Of a DNA stretch of 44,255 nucleotides, positions 38,255 to 38,597 are shown in pieces. Below the pieces are notes generated by a model. It was given only the letters and a program-made list of their open reading frames with translations, had not been told where the DNA came from and ran no database searches. Origin of the DNA: a virus (Duplodnaviria > Heunggongvirae > Uroviricota > Caudoviricetes). Position 1 is the stretch's first letter. Each line of letters starts with the position of its first letter. The translations under genes and the position numbers were made by a program. The DNA lies in the IMG/VR virus record IMGVR_UViG_2690316062_000005. The stretch is one strand, 5' to 3'.

Positions 38255-38285
38255 TCACTGTCGTCATTTCGTTAAGGAAGAAGTT

Positions 38286-38534
38286 ATGAATGAAAAAGTT
38301 TTTGGAGCAAAAGCCATTTAGACTCCAAAGGTTTTTGCGCTTGTTTACCTGGTAATTGGCATTTACCTCGTTTTTTCTGTTGTCTCAATGAATTTCACGG
38401 CGATTACGATATCGGTGGTAAGTGCATTGCTTTTACGTGTGCTTTATGAGTTCCTAATGAACTCATTCAAGGCGACTGAGCATCTTTACAGGATCGCCGA
38501 ATCTCTTGACCGTAATGGATCCAGCGATAAATAG
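38286..38534 (+). pseudogene. Small hydrophobic ORF interrupted by an in-frame amber codon (or two short ORFs)
   Basis: ATG at 38286 with AAGGAAG RBS; in-frame TAG at 38319-38321 after 11 codons; same frame continues through a hydrophobic segment to TAG at 38532-38534. Confidence 0.3.
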
Positions 38535-38560
38535 ATAAGTCATTTCAGTGCATATGTAAA

Positions 38561-38583
38561 CCGCCGACATGGCGGTTTTTTTA
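38561..38583 (+). terminator. Intrinsic terminator inside the tail operon
   Basis: CCGCC-GACAT-GGCGG hairpin followed by TTTTTTT. Confidence 0.65.
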
Positions 38584-38597
38584 TTTCCGGAGGCGTG

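Follow-up and report, generated by a model that had tools for sequence, protein, structure and literature searches.

An amber-interrupted small membrane-protein gene at the tape-measure/gpN junction of a lambdoid prophage with a Mu-type tail

The small gene and its homologues

Why should a phage tail operon leave some 340 bp between its tape-measure gene and the gpN-like gene that follows, and why should that gap hold a small open reading frame (ORF) that stops after 11 codons and then runs on in the same frame? The question is raised by IMG/VR record IMGVR_UViG_2690316062_000005, a Caudoviricetes sequence of 44,255 nucleotides that was analyzed over its whole length and is referred to here as the window. 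A preliminary description of the locus had offered three readings: a decaying moron, that is, an accessory phage gene; a gene needing amber suppression or readthrough; and a short leader peptide followed by a small membrane protein. The analysis reported here points to the first of these. The window probably carries a null allele, caused by a tryptophan-to-amber change at codon 12, of a conserved accessory gene of the tail module, positioned upstream of a pre-existing terminator that is plausibly overridden by the antiterminator Q.

The gap itself was confirmed, with a correction at its downstream end. The tape-measure ORF (36395-38254, 619 codons) ends with a stop codon at 38252-38254. The next gene had been thought to start at GTG 38595, but RefSeq annotation of identical DNA in relatives starts this DNA-circulation (gpN-like) gene at ATG 38598, behind the ribosome-binding site (RBS) GAGG (38590..38600, + strand), and its product matched PF07157 (DNA_circ_N, E 2.8e-30). 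The gap is therefore 38255-38597. Its described contents, a strong RBS with ATG 38286, 11 codons, an in-frame TAG and a hydrophobic same-frame segment of about 70 codons, could all be read in the sequence.

The Shine-Dalgarno sequence AAGGAAG (38274..38280, +) serves ATG 38286 at a spacing of 5, and possibly also ATG 38290 at a spacing of 9, and is identical in all close relatives. The gene that it precedes (38286..38534, +; 82 codons) encodes a small membrane protein similar to phrog_12129 and DUF4282, and is interrupted by the amber TAG at codon 12 (38319..38321, +). Eleven sense codons, MNEKVFGAKAI, stand ahead of the amber, and the same frame is open for 70 further codons past it, to a TAG at 38532-38534. 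Kyte-Doolittle hydropathy placed hydrophobic stretches at approximately residues 16-34 and 36-57, followed by a polar C-terminal helix. The ORF list also contained the alternative ORF of 21 codons that had been noted in the +1 frame from ATG 38290 (38290..38355, +). Behind the amber there remains an ORF of 48 codons (38388..38534, +), which spans hydrophobic helix 2 and the conserved helix at the C-terminus, lacks a Shine-Dalgarno sequence and is probably not expressed.

The small ORF is a real gene and not a chance open frame, judging by the intact homologues, down to 51% identity, that occupy the same slot. A search of 5.8 billion proteins returned 16 clusters, which included intact proteins of 79-83 amino acids (aa) at 51-96% identity from Enterobacter, Escherichia coli, and Citrobacter. 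The diverged homologues (51-59% identity) were all encoded between a tape-measure and a DNA_circ_N gene, as in the window. Twenty-eight positions were invariant among the closer homologues, concentrated in an N-terminal TPK and in a C-terminal LRxLYEFxMxSxKxTEHLYRIAE, and position 12 was Trp in most of the homologues found.

Profile comparisons assigned the protein to a wider family. There was a significant full-length match to phrog_12129 in PHROGs, a family of unknown function (E 4.6e-11, residues 6-77 on positions 2-77 of a profile of 79), and the diverged homologues matched the same profile at 4e-11 to 6e-13. The Pfam family DUF4282 (PF14110) was matched by the window protein at 22.1-22.6 bits (E ~2e-4), below the gathering threshold of 27 bits, and was matched weakly by 10 of the 10 aligned members (best E 6.6e-6), while one homologue (P0012) carried a precomputed faint PF14110 match. 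The DUF4282-type layout was present, with two hydrophobic helices and then a helix with the conserved pattern R-x3-E ... F-K-x2-E-x-L-x-R-I, and R51, E55, and L67 were invariant across 26 aligned sequences. By sequence, this indicates a distant relative of DUF4282 and not a curated member. The family appears to be small: only 24 relatives, which share DUF4282-type motifs, came out of a profile search against 1.8 billion representative proteins. An AlphaFold2 model gave a two-helix hairpin (helices 3-34 and 37-76) with a mean predicted local distance difference test (pLDDT) score of 81, and the protein is predicted to reside in the inner membrane. Searching viral structures with this model gave no match at E<=0.001, only generic helical hairpins, and PADLOC and NCBIfam returned nothing meaningful for the protein.

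Alleles at the amber codon

The preliminary description had proposed asking whether the TAG is a sense codon in related prophages, and it is: TGG in most relatives and TAT in a few. The close relatives L010-L013 have TGG at codon 12, as do three of the outgroups (L047, L049, and L051; 51-59% identity), while two other outgroups have CTA or TTG, both Leu. Since TGG is shared by these close relatives and three outgroups, it is the ancestral codon, and the TAG of the window is a single G>A transition that converted Trp12 to amber. On this comparison the TAG is a nonsense mutation, an instance of ordinary gene loss and not of recoding, and the idea of a decaying moron was essentially right, in that a real accessory gene has acquired a nonsense mutation at a codon that is TGG or TAT in relatives.

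The suggestion that the gene needs amber suppression or readthrough did not hold up. No tRNA genes were found within the window, TAG is the ordinary stop of 3 of the 40 phage genes and of the small ORF itself, and relatives have left TAG by mutation, either to TAT or through an added T. Homologues have TGG, TAT, TTG or CTA at codon 12, which is not the pattern of programmed readthrough or reassignment. Stop-codon reassignment and a phage suppressor tRNA were both rejected, given that no tRNA is present and TAG serves as a stop elsewhere. An Rfam search over the gap gave nothing at threshold and two sub-threshold matches, both over the terminator. A programmed -1 frameshift from the 38290 frame on G-GTT-TTT was also considered and rejected on the sequence of the site, which is not an X-XXY-YYZ heptamer and in which the T5 run is too short for transcriptional slippage.

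The interval was carried by 22 of 5,426 complete E. coli genomes. Twenty-one of these had TAG with a run of five T downstream (TAG/T5), one (NCTC9040) had TAT, and none had TGG or TAG with a run of six T (TAG/T6). A census of IMG/VR, in which the scan left the last two bases of codon 12 free, gave 30 contigs: 25 with TAG/T5, three with TAT, one with TGG, and one with TAG/T6. The 21 E. coli genomes with TAG were exact matches, and the Prokaryotic Genome Annotation Pipeline (PGAP) annotates no feature in the gap in any of them. The type strain of Citrobacter youngae, the only species representative returned by a scan of genome contigs, also carries TAG. Identical TAG codons in 21 independent complete E. 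coli genomes, 25 IMG/VR contigs, and the C. youngae type strain refute the explanation that the TAG is a sequencing or assembly error, which had only the general possibility of such errors in its favor and to which a negligible chance is assigned.

Two alleles re-open the full-length ORF. The same interval in NCTC9040 has TAT (Tyr) at codon 12 and encodes an annotated RefSeq protein of 82 aa (WP_023157309.1). In the T6 allele (L006-L009) the TAG is kept, and the T5 run at 38331..38335 (+), 12 nt downstream, has expanded by one T, which puts ATG 38290 in frame with the protein body and fuses the two past the amber. The product, P0006, is a protein of 81 aa that begins with MKKFLEQKPFRLQRF and continues FALVYL..., and 19 contigs encode it, two Enterobacter cloacae assemblies among them. 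As side observations on NCTC9040, its tape-measure gene is annotated as two coding sequences (L003 1-1596) and is probably frameshifted, and a further copy of the small gene, doubly frameshifted internally (P0007), also has Tyr at codon 12; homopolymer assembly errors or a duplicated prophage may account for these.

In a haplotype network of the 340-bp interval, the major TAG haplotype was central (17 loci). One step away from it were +T (5 loci), F27Y (4 loci, the type found in the window), TAT (3 loci), T64S (2 loci), F27C, and a stop-loss at 38532, while the TGG alleles were 2-5 further sites away. The most parsimonious history is thus TGG to TAG, and then TAT and +T; the T6 alleles, which retain the TAG, must have arisen from the amber allele. 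Codon 27 (position 38365) has three alleles among the amber prophages, TTC (Phe), TAC (Tyr), and TGC (Cys), and Tyr27 is also found in an intact Trp12 homologue (P0005). The Tyr at this codon may reflect long-standing polymorphism or import by recombination, and not decay.

Prophages with the amber allele span three genera, 14 gpN haplotypes, and tape-measure variants that differ widely. The presence of the allele on so many backgrounds and in three genera implies that the gene is dispensable for spread of the prophage. At the same time, the occurrence of two independent secondary mutations that re-establish a full-length ORF in amber-bearing prophages makes it probable that the gene is of use under some conditions. 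There were approximately seven distinct derived mutations in the interval, of which two were restoring; by a rough estimate, allowing for homopolymer mutability, two such restorations among about seven would arise by chance at a probability of the order of 1%. This suggests a benefit of the intact protein in some hosts and a true loss of the product through TAG. Signs of relaxed constraint among the amber carriers were weak: T64S alters a residue that is invariant among the closer homologues, and the segregating sites in the ORF were 0 synonymous and 3 non-synonymous or stop-loss, compared with 17:10 in gpN (Fisher p = 0.07).

The same allele distribution bears on a functional amber codon, in which low expression through natural UAG readthrough or in suppressor hosts would provide a tuned hypomorph, for example of a protein that is toxic at full dose. 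TAG is the majority allele, on many flanking haplotypes and in three genera; the downstream frame is open in all carriers but one; and position 12 can be W, Y or L, or lie in an N-terminus that is altogether different, so that any inserted amino acid would work. The base 3' of the stop is A, which in E. coli makes a comparatively weak termination context. However, the window has no suppressor tRNA, TAG is an ordinary stop elsewhere in the phage, and no stimulatory structure or motif was found, the Rfam matches being sub-threshold and terminator-like. The TAG carriers include changes of a conserved residue and of the stop codon, and two ORF-restoring mutations at detectable frequency on the TAG background are what is expected if TAG abolishes a useful product. 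A tuned, functional amber is thus considered unlikely, and a null allele is preferred.

The third reading, a leader ORF followed by a smaller membrane protein of 48 aa translated from ATG 38388, is very unlikely. Such a protein would retain the most conserved part of the family, LRVLYEFLMSSFKATEHLYRIAE, and its match to DUF4282 (E 1.6e-4) equals that of the full-length protein; moreover, gene callers predict it in 16 contigs (P0011). Against this, ATG 38388, the sole in-frame start after the TAG, has no Shine-Dalgarno sequence upstream (ttctgttgtctcaATG), and it lies 66 nt past the TAG and 32 nt past the stop of the alternative frame, too distant for efficient reinitiation. Met35 is not conserved, being F, E or S in the diverged homologues, and the relatives that regained an ORF restored the full-length form and not the internal start.

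The terminator, a candidate promoter, and the phage

The gap also contains an intrinsic terminator (38558..38585, +) directly upstream of the gpN RBS, with a GC-rich stem of 8-9 bp (38558-38578) and a T7 tail. The hairpin is AAACCGCC-GACAT-GGCGGTTT followed by T7, and the hairpin alone has a free energy of -11.8 kcal/mol. The strong terminator of the preliminary description is therefore real, but it is a resident of the tape-measure/gpN junction and not part of an inserted gene. In a relative that lacks the ORF (ECCWS199, L005), the tape-measure stop is followed by approximately 30 nt, an identical terminator and RBS, and gpN. In four diverged relatives that carry the ORF (L045, L047, L049, and L051), a terminator is in the same place before the gpN RBS, with a stem sequence that differs each time. 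A terminator that is present without the ORF, and that keeps its position with different stems, belongs to the junction itself and did not arrive with the small gene. Functionally, it still bounds the small gene.

These observations are also grounds for regarding the interval as non-coding, with the terminator, and possibly a small RNA, setting the balance between tube/sheath/tape-measure and baseplate transcripts, and the ORF being incidental. No other element of the junction is as deeply conserved as the terminator, which also occurs where the ORF is missing and is overlapped by a weak match to a small-RNA-like Rfam family (RF02900, E 0.024, 29 bits against a threshold of 51). The Rfam matches were nevertheless far under gathering scores, and an incidental ORF would not be expected to encode a protein that is conserved to 51% identity with 28 invariant residues, matches phrog_12129, and has relatives in other tail modules. 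A purely regulatory interval is for these reasons highly improbable, and a role for the terminator fits alongside an inactivated accessory gene.

The window encodes a lambda-type Q antiterminator (18719-19411), and in lambda, Q acts by processive antitermination through the terminators of the late region. By analogy, the phage Q plausibly overrides the terminator at 38558 in late transcription. Five strong intrinsic terminators were found on the + strand of the Q-dependent late region: 19504-19525, 21056-21075, 22307-22326, 24103-24120, and 38558-38578. The terminator at 19504 is located just after Q and is tR'-like, and the other four each follow a short gene. The short genes ahead of late terminators comprise two without a family match, a DNA methylase, a DUF2513 protein, and the small ORF. 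This arrangement suggests that the late operon holds a series of accessory-gene cassettes.

Taken together, the proposed course of events is as follows. The ancestral Trp12 codon TGG would have become the amber TAG in the prophage lineage. Ribosomes loading at the strong RBS would then yield a peptide of 11 residues, or one of 21 residues by way of ATG 38290, and the membrane protein would not be made except by background readthrough, the allele being null or a severe hypomorph. The amber allele would have spread with the evidently mobile prophage through E. coli, Citrobacter, and Enterobacter, and a change to TAT, or an extra T that brings ATG 38290 into frame, would re-open the full-length ORF. 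In lytic growth, as judged from lambda, Q would carry RNA polymerase past the terminator.

A sigma-70-like site, ATGATA-17-TATAAT, was found inside the 3' end of the tape-measure gene (38184..38212, +), with a 10/12 match. It is a possible but unproven promoter of the small gene: such sites were as numerous as expected by chance (2 found against 2.1 expected; 13 against 16.5), and the hexamers of this one are absent from the ORF-less L005. Other properties of the locus agree with the definition of a moron given by Juhala et al. 2000, as summarized in PMC3594210. An extra gene is present that a related genome (ECCWS199, L005) lacks at the same position, and the G+C content over 38200-38600 is 36-43%, differing from the 50-56% of the flanking tail genes. 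For seven more E. coli prophages, the sequence match to the gap was confined to its final 36 bp.

The phage that carries the locus is, by gene content and Pfam matches, a lambdoid temperate prophage with a contractile tail module of Mu type. The tail operon had been described as Mu-type, which holds for the tail module; the phage overall is lambdoid and not Mu-like. Its early and head genes include an integrase, RecT, a RecE-like exonuclease, a CI-type repressor, replication protein O, the Q antiterminator, a lysozyme, and a terminase and portal that are both lambda-type. The tail genes encode a sheath, a tube, a TAC_7 chaperone, the tape measure, the DNA_circ_N (gpN-like) protein, a gpP-like hub, and a Mu gp45-like protein. 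No nucleotide similarity to sequenced phages was found.

Several further features of the window and its relatives were recorded. The window tape-measure protein had no Pfam match at E<=1e-3, and the tape measures of the diverged relatives (L047, L049, and L051) have an SLT lytic-transglycosylase domain. Among close relatives the tape-measure gene is highly mosaic (forms of 619 and 642 aa), and the small-gene interval and gpN are nearly identical there. In L051 an extra gene of 188 aa without a Pfam match (2875-3441) lies between the tape-measure gene and the small gene, and from this the junction seems to be an insertion hot spot. An ORF of 44 codons (36268-36402) follows the tail assembly chaperone (Phage_TAC_7, 92 aa, 35975-36253), overlaps the tape-measure start, and is called as a gene in L007 too; the position directly after the tail chaperone is the usual place of its programmed-frameshift extension. 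On the - strand, a very large RecE-like protein of 1128 aa (2835-6224) adjoins RecT, with an Exonuc_VIII match at its N-terminus and a PDDEXK-like DUF3799 domain at its C-terminus. Between the Q gene and the lysis genes there is an N6/N4 DNA methylase of 350 aa (21250-22302), with a weak HTH_3 match within the methylase domain and its own terminator after it.

Tail-linked relatives and comparison with known systems

Members of the family were found in four further placements, on viral contigs and in one cultured phage. In Edwardsiella phage GF-2 the gene follows the tape-measure gene without an intervening nucleotide (gap 0 nt). In L080, L122, L124, and L126 it has a TMP_3-type tape measure on one side, 8-11 nt away, and a Dit-like gene on the other. 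In contigs of the L085 type it is just upstream of a gpV-like spike gene, and in L081 it is just upstream of a gpJ-like tip protein gene. In other words, tail modules of at least four unrelated architectures have a family member beside the gene for the tape measure, a Dit-like protein, a spike or a gpJ-like protein. P2 orf30 was considered as a relative of the gpV-adjacent members and was not supported; tblastn against the phage collection gave only Klebsiella phage Kp4864-1 and GF-2.

In its small size, predicted membrane location, dispensability, and recurrent linkage to envelope-crossing parts of the tail, the protein of the small gene recalls HK97 gp15. The latter is the product of a moron next to the tape-measure gene; it inserts into the inner membrane and blocks DNA entry, and its specificity maps to the tail and tape measure (PMC3594210, PMC10883804). 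Known exclusion proteins that block injection are membrane proteins, and changes in the tape measure allow escape from them (PMC3594210, PMC10883804). By this analogy, the most likely role of the intact protein, put forward tentatively, would be to block entry of the DNA of related phages at the inner membrane, that is, superinfection exclusion as by HK97 gp15. A broader and more doubtful proposal is that the DUF4282-like/phrog_12129 proteins are an unrecognized family of inner-membrane proteins encoded within tail modules and acting on DNA entry mediated by the tape measure or tail tip, and that in the lineage of the window the gene has been switched back and forth, off by the amber and on by TGG, TAT or +T with the alternative start, under alternating selection on a costly exclusion function. 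In the library searched, no paper mentions DUF4282.

Several results count against parts of this interpretation. A conserved promoter belonging to the gene was not found, no such site being present upstream of the diverged homologues, and the classical anatomy of a moron, with its own promoter and terminator, is by sequence not demonstrated. The contrast in synonymous and non-synonymous sites between the ORF and gpN was not significant (p = 0.07). No frameshifts or stops were found in the amber ORF besides the amber itself and one stop-loss, so that heavy decay is not seen; the absence of decay is uninformative at such low divergence (12 per kb in the ORF and 19 per kb in gpN among 25 amber carriers, the gpN value deriving partly from recombination tracts). 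Low-level natural readthrough of UAG-A might yield some protein. For the exclusion function, there was no PADLOC match and no similarity to YebO or gp15.

A cargo gene inactivated by a nonsense mutation is in itself ordinary. What sets this locus apart is that PGAP leaves it unannotated in 21 complete E. coli genomes, yet it is a conserved gene in relatives, and that its natural alleles show a prophage accessory gene being lost and then rescued from within: TGG as the ancestral state, TAG as the dominant one, TAT as a pseudo-reversion, and a +1 T frameshift with an alternative start. These natural alleles are ready-made isogenic on/off variants. The repeated placement next to tape-measure and tail-tip genes nominates the DUF4282-like family as a candidate for injection-blocking or injection-associated membrane proteins.

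Of the known systems, HK97 gp15 (Cumby et al. 2012, reviewed in PMC3594210) is alike in being a small predicted inner-membrane protein whose gene adjoins the tape-measure gene in the tail operon of a lambdoid, Q-dependent temperate phage, in being dispensable for virion production, and in having a G+C content below that of its neighbors. The two proteins differ in sequence: there was no YebO or gp15 match at E<=10 in Pfam, and the motifs of the family alignment are unrelated. HK97 gene 15 precedes the tape-measure gene and is equipped with a promoter and a terminator of its own, whereas here a promoter of the gene could not be made out and the terminator pre-dates the gene. HK97 gp15 excludes, while exclusion here is conjectural and the window copy is knocked out.

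The DUF4282 (PF14110) and phrog_12129 families resemble the window protein in length, in the two hydrophobic helices, and in the motifs TPK and R..(F/Y)E...(F)K..E(Y/H)L.RI. They differ in that the Pfam match is below gathering (22 against 27 bits), and neither family has a known function. A comparison from a cultured phage is gp19 of Edwardsiella phage GF-2 (YP_009126622.1), a hypothetical protein of 80 aa with 33% identity over 93% of the protein, whose gene begins right where the tape-measure ('lytic tail protein') gene finishes; GF-2 is one of only two cultured phages in the collection with a family member. Unlike the window gene, gp19 is intact and belongs to a different tail module, where it is translationally abutted to the tape-measure gene and no terminator was noted.

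Finally, the locus resembles the nonsense pseudogenes of prophage accessory genes, with an early single-nucleotide nonsense mutation in non-essential cargo and nothing annotated in 21 genomes. It differs from them in that the null is the majority allele of an apparently active lineage that spans genera, and in that two intragenic repair alleles co-circulate with it.

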